From a virus (lineage: Duplodnaviria; Caudoviricetes): a DNA stretch of 64,000 nucleotides. Position numbers and translations under genes: made by a program. Each line of letters starts with the position of its first letter. Position 1 is the first letter of the stretch. The DNA is taken from IMG/VR virus record IMGVR_UViG_2872728642_000001, positions 16,810-80,809 of that record. One strand, written 5' to 3'. The notes under the pieces are model-generated. The model was not told the origin of the DNA. It saw only the letters and a program-made list of their open reading frames with translations, and searched no databases. Below, piece after piece: positions 8,419 to 16,999 of this stretch.

Positions 8419-9705
8419 TCAGTAGACCGGCTGCAGCAGCGGCAGCCAGGCCGCTTGCGTGGTGTGCAGGCCATACCTGGCAGCGTCCAGCGCGTGATCG
8501 TCCAATTTCACCGGGACGTCATCGCCCTTCTCAGCCTTCTTGTCGTCCCACGCGTACGAGCCGACCTCGTCGAGGAACCCCGACACCGAGCTATGCACCC
8601 GCAGGTGGTCAGCGCCGAGCAGGTTGGACACGGTGCGGATACCGTCGTTGACGGAGTTGTCCCCCATCGTCGGGGTGAAGCCGTCGCGCTGGAGCTGCGT
8701 GATGAACGACGCGGCGGACGGGTCCACCACCACCCACTGCGGCCGTACCCCGCGGGTGCCAGGGCCATAGGTGTCGGGGATGTTGTCCAGCCACGCGCCG
8801 AGCTTCTGGCTGTACTCGGCGTCGGTGAGTTGCTTCCGCTCGGCGCGGGAGTCCCAGCGGAACTCGCTGGCGAGGTAGATGCGCCGCTGCCCCTGGTCGT
8901 CGGGGGTGGACACGCCGATGAGGATGGCGTCGAACGGATTGACGGTGCCATAGTCAACGCCCAAGGCCAGCCACCGCTCCATGGGCGGCAACTCGGCGAC
9001 GACGTGCCGGTCCGGGTCGAACATGTCGTAGATCGCGCCCTCGGCCATGACCCAGCGGCCCTCAATGAACCGCTTGTACCAAAGCCCGGTGTACTCGGCC
9101 TTGAGCGCCTTGACGTACGCCGGATCCAACGCCGTGTTGTCGTCCAACCGGAAGTGCCAATGCCGCAGGTCAAGCTCATACTTCCGGTCGAGAAACTGCC
9201 GCTTCAACCAGTGGTTCGGAGCATCGGGATTTGTCGTCCCAAAGAGTTTGGCGCCCGTGACGCTGAGCCGGGCCAAGAGCTGGTCCCAGAACTCCCGCTC
9301 GATCAGCGTGATCTCATCGACGTACGCCCCAGCGCAGGTCATACCCCGCAGCCGGTTCTCCGACCGGGCGTCGTTCGACGAGATGATCTCGATACGCCGC
9401 CCGAGGATGTTCGCCGTGGGAGCACCCCGGGTGTAGATGATCCGCCGCGCGATCGGGCCGGTGATCGCCGGGTCCTGCAGCACGTCAAAGACGTTACGGG
9501 CGATGGTGTCGCTCGTCTTGCCCACGATCACCAACGAGCCCCCGCGCGGCGCGTTGGCGACGTACATAACCCACCGCAGCAGCGAGGCGATCGTCTTGCC
9601 CGACCGGATCGCCCCGCTCCAGATGTTCAAGCGCGCCGTGGACTCGCCGATCGACCTCAACTGCTTAGGGGAAAGGTTCAGCGGCGTCGGCGCCGGCGTG
9701 CTCAC
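8419..9705 (-). CDS. terL: Terminase large subunit (PBSX-type)
   Basis: Walker A 'GAIRSGKT', 'LRGMTCAGAYVDE', C-terminal RNase-H 'GVDYG' and 'DDHALDAARY'; GTG overlaps the terS stop. Confidence 0.95.
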   Translation of the reverse strand: MSTPAPTPLNLSPKQLRSIGESTARLNIWSGAIRSGKTIASLLRWVMYVANAPRGGSLVIVGKTSDTIARNVFDVLQDPAITGPIARRIIYTRGAPTANILGRRIEIISSNDARSENRLRGMTCAGAYVDEITLIEREFWDQLLARLSVTGAKLFGTTNPDAPNHWLKRQFLDRKYELDLRHWHFRLDDNTALDPAYVKALKAEYTGLWYKRFIEGRWVMAEGAIYDMFDPDRHVVAELPPMERWLALGVDYGTVNPFDAILIGVSTPDDQGQRRIYLASEFRWDSRAERKQLTDAEYSQKLGAWLDNIPDTYGPGTRGVRPQWVVVDPSAASFITQLQRDGFTPTMGDNSVNDGIRTVSNLLGADHLRVHSSVSGFLDEVGSYAWDDKKAEKGDDVPVKLDDHALDAARYGLHTTQAAWLPLLQPVY

Positions 9706-10187
9706 AGGCCGTCCCCCGACTCGATCTCGCCGATCACCTCGGCCTCGACGATGCTGTCCGTGTCGGGGTCGGGGATGGCGTGCTTCTGCTGGATCTGGAT
9801 CAGCAGGTTGCCCAGCAGCGACGCCATGTCGCCATCCGCGATGCCGTTGCGGTTGATCAGGTCCAGGCCCAGCAGAGTCGATCGCCGGTTGATGCACTTC
9901 AGCGCCGTCTCGCAGGCCTGAACCTCGCCCTTGACTACCTTCGGCCACAGCGACGCCATGATGCGGTCGAGCCGGTCGATCTCCAGCTTGAGAAGCTGCT
10001 CGCTGGCCATCTGCTCCTGCTTGGCCGCCTTCTGCAGCGCCCGGTCGATGTCCTTCGACACCGAGGCCGCGCCCGAGTAGCCCAGCCGATCAGCGATGAC
10101 CGTGGGAGACACCCCAGCGATCCGCATCTGCACGGCCTGGTAGCGCCGCTGGGAGATCTCGACCTGACGGGCCTTGCTGACGACCAT
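9702..10187 (-). CDS. terS: Terminase small subunit
   Basis: N-terminal HTH (RIAGVSPTVIADRLGY), 'INRRSTLLGLD'; directly upstream of terL. Confidence 0.75.
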   Translation of the reverse strand: MVVSKARQVEISQRRYQAVQMRIAGVSPTVIADRLGYSGAASVSKDIDRALQKAAKQEQMASEQLLKLEIDRLDRIMASLWPKVVKGEVQACETALKCINRRSTLLGLDLINRNGIADGDMASLLGNLLIQIQQKHAIPDPDTDSIVEAEVIGEIESGDGL

Positions 10188-10231
10188 GAGGGCAGCTCCT
10201 GATCTACTACGCTTCTCGGGTGCGGATGCGG

Positions 10232-10600
10232 ATGCTGACCGTCCGGCAGCCATGGGCGGCGTTGCTCGTCACGGGCATCAAGGACGTGGAGAACCGGAGC
10301 TGGGTCACGCCGTATCGGGGCAGGCTCCTGATCCATGCGGGCCTCAAGACCGACGCGGAAGGCTTCGAGCTGATGGAGGAGCTGGGCGTCGCCCTCGACG
10401 GGCCGCTGCTGCGCGGCGCGATCGTCGGGTCGGTGAACCTCGTCGAGATCCGCCAGGACAGCACCTCGCCATGGGCCCGCCCGGGAGAGAATCACTGGCT
10501 GGTCACTGACGCGCGACCAGCGGTCACGCCGATGGCCGCTGTCGGCGCGCTCGGGCTACGGCCGGCTCCGGCCGGTTGGACGAAGGCTTTCGCGGCCTAG
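10232..10600 (+). CDS. ASCH domain protein
   Basis: 'LTVRQPWAALLVTGIKDVENRSW...YRGRLLIHAG' ASCH signature; opposite strand; stop overlaps the stop of the ABC-GNAT gene. Confidence 0.9.
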   Translation: MLTVRQPWAALLVTGIKDVENRSWVTPYRGRLLIHAGLKTDAEGFELMEELGVALDGPLLRGAIVGSVNLVEIRQDSTSPWARPGENHWLVTDARPAVTPMAAVGALGLRPAPAGWTKAFAA

Positions 10601-11679
10601 CGCGGCGCCACGTACTCGAACGACACGACGCCGAGACGGCGCGGGTCGAGCGTCTGCGCGTGCATCCACTGGTGCTTGGAGCGGGTGCCGAGCTTCTTCT
10701 GGCCCTGGATCATCCGCCACCGCGGCGATCCGCTCCGGTAGGCGATCAGCGCCGGATGGCTGGACACCGATCGGTAGCGGAATCCCTGCTCGTACAGCCG
10801 CTGCCCCATCCACTCGGAGAATCGGACGCCGATACCGAGCCCCTGATAGTCCGGCAAGACCACCAACCGGTGCTCCATCTTCAGGTTCCGCGTCGCGGGG
10901 TGCTGGAAGTGGCGGTAAGCCAGGAACGCGACCGGCTCGCCGTCGATGAACCCGGCGAACTTCTTGCTGGAGCGGTGAAGCTCCGTGCTCAGATAGTGAT
11001 GGCGTGCGAAGACGGGCCAGAGCTGCCCATCGACCGGCCGGATTTCGAGCCGGAGCACGGGCCGGGGTTGAACCGACCTCCACTCGAACGAGCCCGTCGA
11101 GACGTCCAGCACCCAATCCGGCTGCAGCCACTCCAGCACGTCGTAATGGCATGTCACCGCAACGAACTGGCGGTCGCTGCGCCGTACGGTCTTCTGGATC
11201 GTGTGGCTAGCGACCCGCGCGACCTGGCGGTCCACGACGCTCGTGAACTCGTCGATGACGACCAGTTCTCCCGACTCGGCCAGGGCCCGAGCGATCGTTG
11301 CCCGGAACGCTTCCCCGTTGGACAGGGTCCGGTACGGCCGGAGCCACGCCGGCGGGGAGGACAGGCCGACCGCGCCGAGGAGCGCCACGATGTCCTTGAT
11401 GGACATGTCCGCCGGGAAGTCGTCCACCAGCGACCGGTCATCGGACCAGGTGTGCGGGCTGACGATGTGGTCGGGCCACAGATGCCGCGCGATACTGGTC
11501 TTCCCGGCTCCCGAGGGGCCGACGATCAGGCCGACGCTCCACGGCCGTTCCTCGATCGGCAGGTCCATCGCCCAGGAATTGCTCAGCCGCTCCTCCACGG
11601 GCACGTCGAACAGGCCCTGGATCTGGAGGACGCGGGCGGTCCGGTGGACCGGTGCCGACACGGTGATCTCGGCTCGCAC
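10597..11679 (-). CDS. ABC-type ATPase fused to GNAT (Mom-like) acetyltransferase
   Basis: Walker A 'GPSGAGKT', signature 'LSNGE', Walker B 'VIDEFTS', H-loop 'TCHYD'; GNAT acetyl-CoA motif 'RLVVLPDYQGLGIG'. Confidence 0.9.
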   Translation of the reverse strand: MRAEITVSAPVHRTARVLQIQGLFDVPVEERLSNSWAMDLPIEERPWSVGLIVGPSGAGKTSIARHLWPDHIVSPHTWSDDRSLVDDFPADMSIKDIVALLGAVGLSSPPAWLRPYRTLSNGEAFRATIARALAESGELVVIDEFTSVVDRQVARVASHTIQKTVRRSDRQFVAVTCHYDVLEWLQPDWVLDVSTGSFEWRSVQPRPVLRLEIRPVDGQLWPVFARHHYLSTELHRSSKKFAGFIDGEPVAFLAYRHFQHPATRNLKMEHRLVVLPDYQGLGIGVRFSEWMGQRLYEQGFRYRSVSSHPALIAYRSGSPRWRMIQGQKKLGTRSKHQWMHAQTLDPRRLGVVSFEYVAPR

Positions 11680-11713
11680 AGCACGACCTTCCAAGGGGTA
11701 GCGGGCGGCGGGG

Positions 11714-12355
11714 TTACATCAGGGCGCGGGCGCTCCAGCCCTGACCGGCGAGCTGGTTGAGGAGCTGCACCTGCTGCGCTTCGCTGTCGCAGGTGACCAC
11801 CACGCCCCAGACGACGGGCCGCGTATGGGTCTCGGCGTCGCCCGGTTCGGGCAACTCCTCCTCGTCGTCGGTGCCAGCCTGGTCGGCGCGGCCACCGCCC
11901 GGAGCCGGAGCGCGGTCGGGGGAAAGCGCCACCGCGTTGTCGGCGGCGATGGCGTCGGCCAGGTCGTCGAGATCCTGCTCCGTCCAGCCGGTGCCGTCGA
12001 GGTCGTCGAGGCTGCGCAGCAGCTCGGCAAGGGCCTGGTCGTCGTACCCGCCGATCTCGGCGGTGCGGTTGTCGGCGAGGAGGATGCGCAGCGCGGCGGC
12101 GTCGTCCACGTCGAGGATCAGCGCGGGCACCTGGCCCAGACCCTTGGCCTTCGCGCCCCGCCAGCGGTGCTCACCGGCGATGATCCGCATCCGGGACTTC
12201 TGGACCAGGATCGTGCCGTAGAAGCCGTTCTTCTCGATCGACTTGGCGATCACGTCCACGTCGCCCTGGTGCGGGTTGTCCGGGTGCGGTTCGAGATCGG
12301 CGACCGGCACCATGCGGTAGGTCTGGGAAACGATGGCGGGCATGGACGCGCTCAC
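11714..12355 (-). CDS. ParB/Srx-like N-terminal domain protein
   Basis: 'LEPHPDNP...IAKSIEKNGFYGTILV...IIAGEHRWRGAK' and 'ILLADNRTAE'. Confidence 0.9.
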   Translation of the reverse strand: MSASMPAIVSQTYRMVPVADLEPHPDNPHQGDVDVIAKSIEKNGFYGTILVQKSRMRIIAGEHRWRGAKAKGLGQVPALILDVDDAAALRILLADNRTAEIGGYDDQALAELLRSLDDLDGTGWTEQDLDDLADAIAADNAVALSPDRAPAPGGGRADQAGTDDEEELPEPGDAETHTRPVVWGVVVTCDSEAQQVQLLNQLAGQGWSARALM

Positions 12356-13410
12356 CCGCCTTCCTCGGCCCGAGGCCGGTAGCCGTTCCGGGTCCGCATC
12401 TGCGACATCTTCGCGCCAAGCGCGATCAGCGCGGCGACCTGCCACGTGCCCTTCTCAACCACCTCGTCATCGACCTCGACGGACCACGAGTCGATCGAGC
12501 GGCCCTCCCGGTACGGGATGCCGGGGGTGGCCGTCCACTGCACCGACCAGGACAGGCGGTCGCGCCACCGCAGCCGCGGCCGGCCGAGTCGTTCCCGCTG
12601 AAGCTGCAGACGCACCTCGTGTTGATCGCCCTCGGGCATCCGCACGACGCCCACCTGCTCGTCGCCGACCGGCTCGTAGCTGTACCGCTTGGGCCCAAAC
12701 AGGCGCTCCATCAGGTCGAAGCTGGCGTAACCCTGCTGCCACCACGGGGCGGCGCTGTCCCAGTATCCGCTGCGGCCCCAGAGAGCCCACCGGTACTGCC
12801 ACTCGCCGATGGCCAGGCGGACCTCGCGCGACTCATATCCGGTCGGGTTGAGTCGGCGCTGCACCCACCTGCCGTATCCCTCGGTGTGCACGTAGATGGC
12901 CAGCAGTCGGCCGAGCCGCAGGTGTGCGTCCAGCATGTGATCGCTGCCTGCGTTGCCGACCTCGAACCCGATCGAGAAGCCGGGAAGAGCTCGACTGCCG
13001 ACGACGACCTGTCCACCGATGGCGCCCCGCGGGCTTTCCGGATACGGGCCGGGCTTGCCCTTGTCGGCATCGTGGACGGGCGCGGTGCGTAGTCCGAGCA
13101 TCGCCATCCACGCGTCGGCCGCCAGTACCCGTGTGAGCGGGATCCACGGCCCGCTGTACGGGTCGCCCACCTGGTACTTCGCGGGGTCGAGCGACCCTTG
13201 CGGGCTGGGCCGGACTCCGCACCGGTCGCAGACGATCCAGCGGGCCGCGTGCAGGCCGGGCTCGCACGGGCCATAGCCGTCCACGACCGGCCGGTGGCCG
13301 CGCAGGCGGCAGATGAGCATGAGGCGGGGCAGGTCCGACAGCCACCACCCGCGATCGACGAGTGATTGGCTGTCGTCCTCTGCCTTGTAGTTGACGCTGT
13401 GCCAGCGCAC
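12352..13410 (-). CDS. Hypothetical protein (352 aa, Trp-rich, N-terminal C/H Zn-finger-like motif)
   Basis: GTG start with RBS GGAGG; coupled to the ParB gene. Confidence 0.7.
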   Translation of the reverse strand: MRWHSVNYKAEDDSQSLVDRGWWLSDLPRLMLICRLRGHRPVVDGYGPCEPGLHAARWIVCDRCGVRPSPQGSLDPAKYQVGDPYSGPWIPLTRVLAADAWMAMLGLRTAPVHDADKGKPGPYPESPRGAIGGQVVVGSRALPGFSIGFEVGNAGSDHMLDAHLRLGRLLAIYVHTEGYGRWVQRRLNPTGYESREVRLAIGEWQYRWALWGRSGYWDSAAPWWQQGYASFDLMERLFGPKRYSYEPVGDEQVGVVRMPEGDQHEVRLQLQRERLGRPRLRWRDRLSWSVQWTATPGIPYREGRSIDSWSVEVDDEVVEKGTWQVAALIALGAKMSQMRTRNGYRPRAEEGG

Positions 13411-13570: not shown

Positions 13571-14275
13571 ATGGGTTTCCTGCGTCGGCCCTCACTTCTC
13601 ATCACCGCCGCAATCATGAGCGCGATAACTTCCACGCCCGTCTACACGTCTCCCGCCCTCGCCAAGCCAGCCGCCGAACAGGCACCGCCACCCCTGCTCC
13701 TGTGGGACGCGGTCACTGAACTGCCAGCAGCAACCGAGAGCCGCGACGGCTACAAACGCACCAGCTTCCACAAGACCCCATCGGCGCGCCTATGGATCGA
13801 CCTCGATCACGATGGCTGCGATACCCGCCGCGAGGTCCTCATCGCCGAGGCCGTCACCGCACCCGAGATCGGCCAGAAATGCACGCTCACCGGCGGCATC
13901 TGGCGCTCCTACTACGACGGCATCACCGTGGACAGCGCCGACAAACTCGACATCGACCACGTCGTCCCGCTGGCCGAAGCCTGGGACTCCGGCGCCTCGG
14001 CGTGGACCGTCGAACGGCGCGTCGCCTACGCCAATGACCTAAACGCCGAACACCACCTGGTGGCCGTCACCCAGCGCAGCAACCGGCAGAAGGCCGACCG
14101 GGACCCCGCCGAGTGGCTACCCCCGGACGAGCCGGTGCGCTGCCGGTACGTGGCCGAATGGACCGCGATCAAACGCCGCTGGCAGCTCACTGTGGACGAC
14201 CGGGAGAAGGAGACCCTGGAGGCAATCGCCCGCGGCTGCCCCAATGTACCCCTGGACGAACAGCCCACCCCTTGA
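13571..14275 (+). CDS. Secreted HNH endonuclease (DUF1524 / GmrSD C-terminal type)
   Basis: Signal peptide; 'DIDHVVPLAEAWDSGA', 'LVAVTQRSNRQKADRDPAEWLP', 'GCDTRREVL'. Confidence 0.85.
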   Translation: MGFLRRPSLLITAAIMSAITSTPVYTSPALAKPAAEQAPPPLLLWDAVTELPAATESRDGYKRTSFHKTPSARLWIDLDHDGCDTRREVLIAEAVTAPEIGQKCTLTGGIWRSYYDGITVDSADKLDIDHVVPLAEAWDSGASAWTVERRVAYANDLNAEHHLVAVTQRSNRQKADRDPAEWLPPDEPVRCRYVAEWTAIKRRWQLTVDDREKETLEAIARGCPNVPLDEQPTP

Positions 14276-14923: not shown

Positions 14924-15892
14924 CTACTCCAGTAGCGACGCCACCACCTGAGAGGCGTCCTTCTCCAGCCGATCCCGGCTGTGCAGATATATCTCCGTCG
15001 TGGACACGTCGGCGTGGTTGAGGTCGAGCTGGATCTGCCGCATCGCCACGCCGGCCTCCTGCGCCAGCGACGCATAGGTGTGCCTGCACGAGTGCGGCCC
15101 CACCTTCGACGTGATGCCCGCCTGCATGGCGATGCGCCGCACCAGCTCGAACGCCTTCGACCTGCTCCAGCTCTGGCCGGTCGAGGTCGCGAACAGCGGA
15201 CCCGTCAGGTCCTGCAGCTCGATCCCTTCGCGGCGCGCCCGCTCAGCGAGGTAGATGTCCAGCGTGTGCGTCGTCTCCACCGGCAGACGTCGGGTGATCG
15301 TGTCGCCGCCCTTCACCGTGATGCGCAGCGTCCGGTACCCGCGGGCGAACCCGAGGTCGTCGATCTGCGCGTTGATTGCCTCGGAGATGCGGATCCCGGT
15401 CTGCAGCAGCAGCCGGATCAGCGCCGCGGTGCGCAGCCGTTCCCGGCCGTGGTCGGCGTCGGCCGCCCGGAGGAAATCCTGCGCCTCTCCCTTGGTGAGC
15501 GCGACCGTCTCGGAGTGCTTGCGCGGGATCTTCGGCCGCCGCGTCTTCTTGAACCGGTTGGCGTCGAGGGCTTCGGTCTCGTGCAGGTACTCGTACCAGG
15601 ACGACACCGACGACAGCACCTGAGCGACCGTCTTCGGCTTTGGCGGCCGGCGGGCCGTCTCCTGGTACCAGCGGGAGAACACGTCGCCGTGCGGCTTGCG
15701 TGCCTCCAGCGGGTCGAGGCCGGTCTCCGCGCAGAACTGGAACCAGCGCCGGATGTTCCGCTCGTACGCTTCGCGGGTGTGCGGCGAGTCATACGACCAC
15801 AGCCACGCCCGGGTCAGGTCGAGGATGATCGGCGGGAGGTCGAGCGGGAGCGCGAGGTCGCCGCGCGGCGCCTGGACCAGCTCGCCGGTCAT
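14924..15892 (-). CDS. Tyrosine recombinase, XerC/D-like resolvase
   Basis: Catalytic R (TGIRISEA), K (TVKGG), HxxR (HSCRH), H/Y (LNHADVSTTEIY); SAM-like N-domain (SPHTREAY). Confidence 0.92.
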   Translation of the reverse strand: MTGELVQAPRGDLALPLDLPPIILDLTRAWLWSYDSPHTREAYERNIRRWFQFCAETGLDPLEARKPHGDVFSRWYQETARRPPKPKTVAQVLSSVSSWYEYLHETEALDANRFKKTRRPKIPRKHSETVALTKGEAQDFLRAADADHGRERLRTAALIRLLLQTGIRISEAINAQIDDLGFARGYRTLRITVKGGDTITRRLPVETTHTLDIYLAERARREGIELQDLTGPLFATSTGQSWSRSKAFELVRRIAMQAGITSKVGPHSCRHTYASLAQEAGVAMRQIQLDLNHADVSTTEIYLHSRDRLEKDASQVVASLLE

Positions 15893-16624: not shown

Positions 16625-16999
16625 ATGAGCACCTGGCAGTTCGGCGTCCTCCACCTAGGGGCGGTCATCGGGTTGGGAGCGGCCACGGCCGAACTGCAAC
16701 TGCAGCATGCACTCTGGTGGTCTGCCCTGTTGTATGCGGTGTTGGGCTGGCTGTCCGGCGGGAAAGTGGTCTCGGAGCTGAGATGGGTACGCCCTCTGCC
16801 CAAGTCGAGACGCACCCGGGCAGTAAAGCTCGTGCTCGCCATCCCTGCTGCCACGCTGGGTCTTTGGGTCAACCCGGTTACCTTCTTCAGCCGGACGTTG
16901 GGGGTCGTCGAGCTGCAATTCATGCTGTGGGGGCCGATCGCCCTCTTCGGGCTGTGCATTGCTGCGGCCAGTTGGTACTTCTTCCGGGACTTTCGGTAA
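16625..16999 (+). CDS. Small multi-pass membrane protein
   Basis: 124 aa with ~4 hydrophobic segments; opposite strand to neighbours. Confidence 0.6.
   Translation: MSTWQFGVLHLGAVIGLGAATAELQLQHALWWSALLYAVLGWLSGGKVVSELRWVRPLPKSRRTRAVKLVLAIPAATLGLWVNPVTFFSRTLGVVELQFMLWGPIALFGLCIAAASWYFFRDFR

Follow-up and report, generated by a model that had tools for sequence, protein, structure and literature searches.

Does a gene cassette lying directly before the terminase genes of an actinobacterial prophage place an acyl group on phage DNA, and does the small gene that faces it on the other strand take that group off again? The question is raised by a 64,000-nucleotide stretch of viral DNA (hereafter the window; positions 16,810 to 80,809 of IMG/VR record IMGVR_UViG_2872728642_000001), in which a ParB-like gene is followed by a gene for an ABC-type ATPase fused to a GNAT acyl-transferase (ABC-GNAT), which in turn ends tail to tail with a gene for an ASCH-domain protein. 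A reading of this DNA made from the sequence alone had proposed that the ABC-GNAT acylates DNA bases and that the ASCH protein removes or recycles the acylated nucleosides, or protects the lysogen. We found that the window copy is a typical member of a known predicted family and that the linkage of ASCH to ABC-GNAT is real, recurrent, independently evolved and optional. A cassette that acylates DNA at the time of packaging, together with an ASCH protein acting as hydrolase or binder, is the combined picture that we favour from these comparisons, with a confidence that stays somewhat short of even.

The locus and its genes

The cassette lies in a prophage arm that spans positions 150 to about 15,900 of the window, with genes almost all on the minus strand, and the host replicon is a 13.8-Mb actinobacterial genome. 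The G+C content of the window is 68%, and the nearest relatives of its proteins are found in Nonomuraea. Genes were called with Pfam, PHROGs and NCBIfam together with direct reading of starts and stops, and on this basis (Pfam, PHROGs and the gene ends) all of the genes named in the sequence-only reading are present, as are the overlapping TAG stops, which were read directly as CTAG. The features are as follows.

11714..12355, minus strand: ParB/Srx-like protein (Pfam PF02195, E 2.2e-12; phrog_723, E 8e-42)
11080..11679, minus strand: ABC-type ATPase domain of the fusion protein (Pfam ABC_tran, E 1.6e-7; motifs; AlphaFold; Foldseek)
10597..11073, minus strand: GNAT acyl-transferase domain of the fusion protein, stop codon at 10597-10599 included (PF00583 Acetyltransf_1, E 9e-6)
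10226..10600, plus strand: ASCH-domain protein, TRIP4/ASC-1-like, Glu-type (PF04266, E 4.8e-6; phrog_3193, E 1e-35)
10597..10600, both strands: CTAG shared by the two convergent TAG stops (read from the sequence)
9702..10187, minus strand: small-terminase-like helix-turn-helix (HTH) protein, terS (HTH_23; phrog_645)
8419..9948, minus strand: large terminase subunit, TerL (Terminase_6N, E 2.6e-10; Terminase_3; blastn matches to actinophage terminases)
12352..13410, minus strand: protein of 352 amino acids (aa), no family assigned; its TGA stop overlaps the GTG start of ParB (GTGA)

Transcription on the minus strand runs from the 352-aa gene through ParB, ABC-GNAT and the terS-like HTH gene to TerL. 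The ParB gene starts at GTG 12355 and stops at TAA 11714-11716, and 34 nucleotides (nt) separate its end from the GTG start of ABC-GNAT at 11679, which is preceded by a GGAAGG ribosome-binding site. The stop of ABC-GNAT is the reverse complement of 10597-10599 and shares the CTAG with the ASCH stop, TAG 10598-10600; the ASCH gene starts at ATG 10226 or 10232. About 40 nt from that start and divergent from it, terS begins at ATG 10187 with GGAG 8 nt upstream, a position that is kept in relatives. The 410-nt gap from the ABC-GNAT stop to the terS start is occupied by the plus-strand ASCH gene and, if ParB, ABC-GNAT and terS are co-transcribed, transcription of terS must cross the antisense ASCH gene. 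Some 70 nt past the ASCH stop there is a weak hairpin resembling a terminator. The open reading frames scanned with Pfam extended over 11714-12445(-) for ParB, 10597-11694(-) for ABC-GNAT, 10220-10600(+) for ASCH and 9702-10253(-) for terS; because the listed TerL frame overlaps terS, the true start of TerL is probably near 9700. The fusion gene is present in a single copy in the host genome.

The ABC-GNAT family and its setting

The window ABC-GNAT is a full-length member of PHROG 11143 (phrog_11143, E 3.5e-104, residues 9-363 on profile positions 2-350 of 357), a group annotated as 'unknown function', and a protein of Tenacibaculum phage pT24 matches it at 36.5% identity (tblastn E 1e-52). 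The pT24 protein is named as a family example in the account given in PMC7824862, and the ABC-GNAT family of ParB-terminase loci was predicted by Iyer, Aravind and colleagues to acylate a DNA base, as summarised in PMC7824862 and PMC4738411, the latter describing the ParB-linked, terminase-adjacent setting under the name 'ParB-Tls loci'. As such, the core idea of a writer is already published as a prediction, and our literature search found no experimental test of ABC-GNAT activity. The family is large, comprising at least 7,885 clusters at 90% identity with E <= 1e-5, at least 572 matches among GTDB species representatives, 40 IMG/VR loci from one scan and 69 cultured-phage records from Actinobacteria, Firmicutes, Bacteroidota, Proteobacteria and Leptospira, with pT24 among these carriers.

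The ABC motifs are complete (Walker A GPSGAGKT, signature LSNGE, Walker B VVIDEF, D-loop SVVDR, H-loop CHYD), and the GNAT domain carries HHYL and the acyl-CoA motif A (R-x-V-V-L-P-D-Y-Q-G-x-G-x-G). We aligned 13 and 42 homologues, with identity down to 31%, and over the 42 sequences G59, K65, S125, G127, D148, E149 and H183 of the ABC domain are invariant, as are R276, P281 and G285 of the GNAT domain, with G287 nearly so; the HHYL motif is likewise invariant or nearly so in these alignments. The catalytic motifs are thus kept in both halves, which argues that both are under selection as enzymes. AlphaFold gave a confident two-domain model with a predicted local distance difference test score (pLDDT) of 93, and of 89 for the GNAT domain modelled alone; for the whole model, Foldseek returned solely ABC-transporter ATPase domains, the best being ABC nucleotide-binding domains.

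The setting of the family was sampled in 123 loci centred on ABC-GNAT, in which neighbours were scored with purpose-built profiles and kin were removed by clustering at 70% identity, so that counts are given per lineage; as the profiles are home-made, the counts are lower bounds, and matches of the terS-derived profile to the antisense frame of ASCH were disregarded. A ParB gene stands upstream on the same strand within 700 nt in 57 of 66 lineages (86%), and at least 33 of 54 have a terminase gene in the 5 kb downstream, for the subset of terminase families that was modelled. The downstream large terminases belong to four unrelated families (Terminase_6N/6C, TerL_ATPase/nuclease PF03354, GpA and Terminase_3) and the small subunits are of the HTH_23 or Terminase_4 type, which ties the cassette to the packaging function and not to one phage lineage. 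Together with the PHROG membership, these counts bear out the earlier assignment of the module to the ParB-linked, terminase-adjacent class of predicted DNA-modification systems.

The ParB partner begins with a ParB_N domain that has the GxxR nucleotide-binding motif (AGEHR) and continues through an acidic linker to a C-terminal mini-domain; the latter, conserved and about 35 aa long, is specific to the family and unlike the C-terminus of a canonical partition ParB. In an alignment of 21 partners G57 is invariant and R60 nearly invariant. Only ParB_N was found in the window ParB; the centromere-binding HTH and the C-terminal dimerisation domain, canonical features of ParABS systems, were not detected in it, and its score against TIGR00180 is 38, under the cut-off of 58.

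Natural fusions and neighbouring enzymes

A search among longer proteins found ParB_N fused to ABC-GNAT in P0127 and P0131, the latter encoded on three independent contigs from three samples (L124-L126), and in L012 (7326-9062) ParB_N and ABC-GNAT share a single open frame; the loci of these fusions also carry an ASCH gene in convergent orientation, with an overlap at the 3' end. In addition, four proteins of 817-856 aa from different sources (P0133-P0136) join an entire ABC-GNAT to an entire large terminase; their pairwise identity of 48-50% over the full length indicates that the clade is maintained and is no artefact of assembly. One such terminase fusion, at L123:445-2979, heads a Mu-like head module, with an ASCH gene just upstream (9-404). 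Fusion to ParB on one side and to terminase on the other suggests that the enzyme acts with ParB and at the packaging motor, and hence on DNA, and judged from sequence the two kinds of fusion are the strongest new argument for DNA as its working site.

Other departures from the usual gene structure were also seen. Inteins (Hom_end/LAGLIDADG, intein_splicing) lie inside the ABC-GNAT genes of P0125, P0132 and P0139, and an HNH endonuclease insertion in that of P0128. In phiNIH1.1 (L002, 5016-5944), and also in L034 and L045, the ABC and GNAT halves lie in different frames with the junction at the domain border; the GNAT half is not annotated in the phiNIH1.1 record. The gene of streptococcal phages seems to be split in two.

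The enzymes encoded around ABC-GNAT vary and look like parts of variable hypermodification pathways. The ABC-GNAT of the Rhodococcus/Gordonia phage Jace, 57% identical to that of the window, is separated from its convergent ASCH gene by an aspartate decarboxylase (E 2e-33) and a fragment of a family III CoA-transferase (E 2e-8) at 6110-7221 of L001, which plausibly form a route to a beta-alanyl-CoA donor. (The ASCH gene of Jace is gp89, annotated as an HTH protein in the record.) In one subclade a Formyl_trans_N gene lies directly downstream of ABC-GNAT (phiE255, L129, 5128-5742; L018:9095-9739; L036:9155-9850). In the Mu-like phage phiE255 this ABC-GNAT/formyltransferase pair directly follows the tail-fibre genes and lacks ParB, a position which we take to be that of mom in Mu. 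A class II amidotransferase adjoins ABC-GNAT in L012, and in Gordonia phage Axumite a methyltransferase stands between ABC-GNAT and the terminase. With relatives that carry decarboxylase and CoA-transferase or formyltransferase genes, the acyl group need not be acetyl; donor-making genes are absent from the cassette in the window, for which an abundant donor such as acetyl-CoA is therefore the simplest guess.

Four related planctomycete loci (L073:9122-9829, L075, L081 and L082:9144-9851) carry a PIG-L gene on the minus strand in the convergent slot after ABC-GNAT. We considered this de-N-acetylase as a non-homologous stand-in for ASCH and did not count it, since the loci are kin to one another and, with a transaldolase-like gene farther out, the region may be host flank.

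Taken together, context and conserved motifs suggest that ABC-GNAT probably acylates DNA, which upholds the writer proposed by the sequence-only reading while widening the range of acyl groups it might transfer. That reading had leaned on TmcA and NAT10, which combine an ATPase with a GNAT to make N4-acetylcytidine (ac4C), and the same parallel invites the alternative that the pair acts on RNA, the ATPase-GNAT acetylating cytidines of host or phage tRNA or mRNA and the ASCH protein removing ac4C, so that translation would be re-tuned in infection. TmcA does combine an ATPase with a GNAT, ac4C as a nucleoside and in tRNA is the known substrate of ASCH proteins, and ASCH proteins are common in phages that lack ABC-GNAT, where they could target host ac4C. 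The likeness is one of analogy, however. Pfam found only ABC_tran/generic AAA and Acetyltransf_1/7 domains in the fusion protein, with no RecD-like helicase, GNAT_acetyltr_2 or tRNA-binding domain as in TmcA-type enzymes, and the match of NAT10 chains to the GNAT profile (E 0.046) covers no more than 26 residues of motif A. As ParB is a DNA clamp, and both kinds of fusion, with ParB and with the packaging motor, speak for DNA, we consider action on RNA very unlikely.

The ASCH protein and its linkage to ABC-GNAT

The window ASCH matches PF04266 with 27.7 bits against a cut-off of 21.2, and its octapeptide GIKDVENR fits the motif GxKxxExR. Its nearest solved structures are those of the human TRIP4/ASC-1 ASCH domain (E 2e-10), and YqfB was not among its PDB sequence matches up to E 10. 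Under a published division into Glu-type and Thr-type subgroups (bioRxiv 10.64898/2026.02.27.708502), it is of the Glu type ('GKER') and not of the Thr type ('GKTR') to which YqfB belongs. In the same study all 19 ASCH proteins tested, the TRIP4 ASCH included, removed ac4C from tRNA, and the Lys and Glu of the motif were essential for this activity in TthASCH, EOLA1 and TRIP4 ASCH, as was the Arg in TRIP4. The corresponding K19, E22 and R24 are invariant among 11 diverse ABC-GNAT-linked ASCH proteins (25-55% identity). The window protein thus most likely hydrolyses N-acyl amides, or at the least binds a modified base, as far as such comparisons can tell.

Of 68 lineages, 15 (about 22%) have an ASCH gene of the ASC-1 type in the 4 kb downstream of ABC-GNAT, and it is convergent in 13 of the 15. 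Over the 123 loci, all 29 matches to ASC-1-type ASCH fell 76-3542 nt downstream of ABC-GNAT, with none in 693 kb of upstream flank and no further match elsewhere in about 1.4 Mb of flanks; an arrangement that is always downstream and never upstream is not due to chance. Where the genes are convergent, 19 of 21 loci show a tail-to-tail overlap of 4 to about 155 nt. Moreover, three ASCH subfamilies fill the slot beside ABC-GNAT, and all keep GxKxxExR: besides the ASC-1 type, a second one is found in phiNIH1.1, co-directional with the writer, and a third is a mini-ASCH of about 95 aa, convergent in L034 and Pasteurella phage Pmp13 and co-directional in L027. Both genes are present in Leptospira phage LE3, where no ASCH was found in the 3.5 kb around ABC-GNAT. 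In a close relative of the prophage from Nonomuraea, a DDE transposase (insertion sequence) lies between the two genes (L044:9134-10045, minus strand).

Counting co-occurrence had been suggested as a check on the pairing, and the outcome is divided: the association recurs across phyla and in three subfamilies, mostly in convergent and overlapping form, yet it is optional. From this pattern we consider it likely that the ASCH protein is functionally linked to the cassette.

Weighing the proposal

Several observations weigh against an acyl writer paired with its own eraser. On the side of the writer, there is no chemistry on record for any family member, and our search found no report of acylated phage DNA bases. 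When the GNAT domain was compared alone (Foldseek, VIA-align and a PDB profile search), a flat list of generic GNATs was returned, with Z 12-14 over about 130 residues, in which protein, polyamine and antibiotic acetyltransferases match equally well, so that the fold gives no pointer to nucleic acid or to any other substrate. On the side of the ASCH protein, the gene is missing from about 78% of ABC-GNAT lineages, and in streptococcal phages and a few others it is co-directional with the writer, which misfits a simple temporal antagonism. A promoter scan found none near ASCH, using a sigma-70 consensus that is uninformative for an actinobacterium of 68% G+C.

The survey in the reverse direction adds to these points. 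It used an alignment as query, as a single-protein query reached close relatives only; at least 500 IMG/VR contigs were matched and the best 80 loci were examined. ABC-GNAT was found within 6 kb in only 11 of these 80 ASCH-centred loci, being convergent in all 11, and about 15 of the 80 have ParB without ABC-GNAT, with ASCH mostly co-directional and upstream. In the sampled loci, the same ASCH subfamily precedes ParB and non-acyl DNA-modification genes upstream of the terminase, the genes beside ParB encoding a TET-associated glycosyltransferase (TAGT; L146, L176), an amino-acid:DNA transferase (ADDT; L150), QueC (L163) or a radical-SAM enzyme (L145), whose marks are not obviously reversible by an amidohydrolase. 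Cultured phages give a similar picture: 151 records carry the window ASCH subfamily, and by genus counts most are without ABC-GNAT, as in Erwinia and Dickeya jumbo phages. ASCH is thus a general companion of ParB-linked cassettes, for which a role as acyl-only eraser is not required; a general reader, or a function tied to ParB, suits this distribution better than an eraser dedicated to one mark. Direct ParB-ASCH fusions described in earlier work, among them fusions to cyanobacterial ParB-HTH/methylase proteins (PMC4738411), are in line with this. The same survey supports a DNA substrate for ABC-GNAT, as it occupies the ParB/[ASCH]/terminase niche of bona fide DNA-modification enzymes.

The generic fold leaves room for a protein substrate, and one may suppose that ABC-GNAT acetylates ParB, terminase, portal or a host protein and so regulates packaging or host takeover, ASCH being an unrelated accessory in a variable slot before the terminase. 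The nearest folds do include protein N-terminal and RimI-type acetyltransferases, among many, and the terminase fusion is also compatible with a target in the motor; RNA polymerase is a known target of phage GNATs (PMC7824862). What speaks against this view is that ABC-GNAT is strictly paired with ParB and at times fused to it, that genes for acyl donors and formyl transfer adjoin it, that it shares a niche with proven DNA-modification enzymes, and that in phiE255 it is placed after the tail-fibre genes, presumably the mom site of Mu. To our knowledge, moreover, an ATP-driven ABC dimer is not a feature of protein acetyltransferases, and we regard a protein substrate as rather unlikely.

The reciprocal survey bears above all on what ASCH does, and it raises the alternative that the writer works as proposed while ASCH serves as a non-catalytic reader of flipped-out modified or unmodified bases for ParB-linked modification and packaging complexes generally, for example by telling finished phage DNA from other DNA or by shielding marks from modification-dependent nucleases. 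Where the subfamily adjoins ParB with TAGT, ADDT, QueC or radical-SAM genes, hydrolysis would have no amide to act on, which fits a reader; ASCH has also been predicted to bind modified bases and is fused to the cyanobacterial ParB-HTH/methylase proteins (PMC4738411), and the TRIP4 ASCH is reported to bind nucleic acids. A mere reader would leave unexplained why the Lys/Glu/Arg pocket is invariant and why 19 of 19 tested ASCH proteins are hydrolases (bioRxiv 10.64898/2026.02.27.708502). A single invariant pocket is also unlikely to read chemically different marks, and the convergent, overlapping orientation is a feature peculiar to ABC-GNAT loci. On balance, a purely reading role appears unlikely. 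Returning to the proposed eraser, its conserved Lys/Glu/Arg motif stands, and its dedication to this one mark is weakened by the 11 of 80 loci and by the company of the TAGT, ADDT, QueC and radical-SAM genes; that ASCH removes the very mark made by ABC-GNAT is, from the comparisons made here, possible rather than probable.

Proposed mechanism

The gene content, motifs, folds, conserved order, fusions and distribution described above can be drawn together in a scheme that is conjectural in its substrate, acyl group, timing and role of ASCH. ParB, as a nucleotide-gated DNA clamp or activator, would recruit ABC-GNAT to phage DNA or switch it on there. ABC domains dimerise on ATP, and such ATP-driven dimerisation of the single ABC domain might bring two GNAT domains onto the DNA, where GNAT would move an acyl group from acyl-CoA, here probably acetyl-CoA, to an exocyclic base amine, our best guess being N4 of cytosine. 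The marked DNA would then be packaged and guarded against host restriction, with ASCH as an optional partner that limits or reverses the mark. Lying antisense inside the late operon and overlapping the 3' end of the writer, ASCH is expected to be expressed when that operon is silent; we suppose that this would be in lysogeny or early infection, and that ASCH would be shut down by read-through when the writer and terminase are made. The convergent overlap would suit an antagonist that is silenced late, as transcription runs on towards terS and TerL.

Here we speculate further that temperate phages might possess a timed write/erase switch, in which a late, ParB-guided and motor-associated acyl-transferase marks DNA during packaging, while antisense ASCH expressed in the lysogen strips leaky self-modification, or strips the incoming DNA of related phages and so re-exposes the latter to restriction, a form of superinfection exclusion. 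This stronger version we hold to be improbable at present.

Two further genes of the prophage arm deserve mention. The 352-aa gene is probably the first of the ParB/ABC-GNAT transcription unit; its product had no Pfam, PHROG or NCBIfam match, an Atlas search gave no lead, and a homologue was not found in other ABC-GNAT loci. Between the cassette and the integrase (14924-15892), a gene for a GmrSD_C/HNH-type nuclease lies at 13571-14275 on the plus strand, opposite to the phage genes, and it may be relevant to superinfection, as its family is linked to modification-dependent restriction.

Significance

Thousands of phages and prophages, drawn from different bacterial phyla, carry the candidate writer, and those that are easily grown include phages of Gordonia, Rhodococcus, Lactococcus, Streptococcus, Pasteurella and Burkholderia. 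Should the proposal be true, it would represent a new chemical class of phage DNA modification, a second case of ParB partnering a base-modifying enzyme and possibly the first eraser of a DNA mark encoded beside its writer, and the timed switch would be the first DNA acylation system in nature to come with an eraser of its own. With the terminase fusions, the neighbouring genes of possible donor pathways and the ASCH survey in the reverse direction, the question can be tested directly, and in phages that these findings single out.

Comparison with known systems

The closest system is the predicted ABC-GNAT of the ParB-Tls loci, for example that of pT24, which, as far as it is described in PMC4738411, has the same family, ParB partner and terminase adjacency; nothing essential is different, and the window copy adds the convergent ASCH gene. 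The ParB-dependent thymidine dioxygenases of phages (5mYOX; PMC13229309) are similar in that a post-replicative base-modifying enzyme is encoded with a ParB-like partner, often near the terminase, and for these ParB has been shown experimentally to be an activator (PMC13229309). There, however, the enzyme is an Fe/2-oxoglutarate dioxygenase and not an ATPase-acyltransferase, and the ParB dependence of ABC-GNAT is a prediction.

Mom of phage Mu is likewise a GNAT-superfamily enzyme that modifies a DNA base amine, with an acyl-type mark on adenine, against restriction, whereas it has neither an ATPase domain nor a ParB partner; the likeness seen is that of the GNAT superfamily only, and no Mom-named family or structure was among the Pfam, PDB-sequence or fold matches, with which a distant relationship is still compatible. 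TmcA and NAT10 share the joining of an ATPase to a GNAT, but the ATPase of the window protein is an ABC domain and not a RecD-like helicase, tRNA-binding domains are lacking, and the context points to DNA. Lastly, the ASCH erasers YqfB, TthASCH, EOLA1 and TRIP4-ASCH have the conserved Lys/Glu(Thr)/Arg motif in common with the window ASCH, which is of the Glu type and TRIP4-like, and not of the kind of YqfB, a Thr-type protein of about 103 aa.

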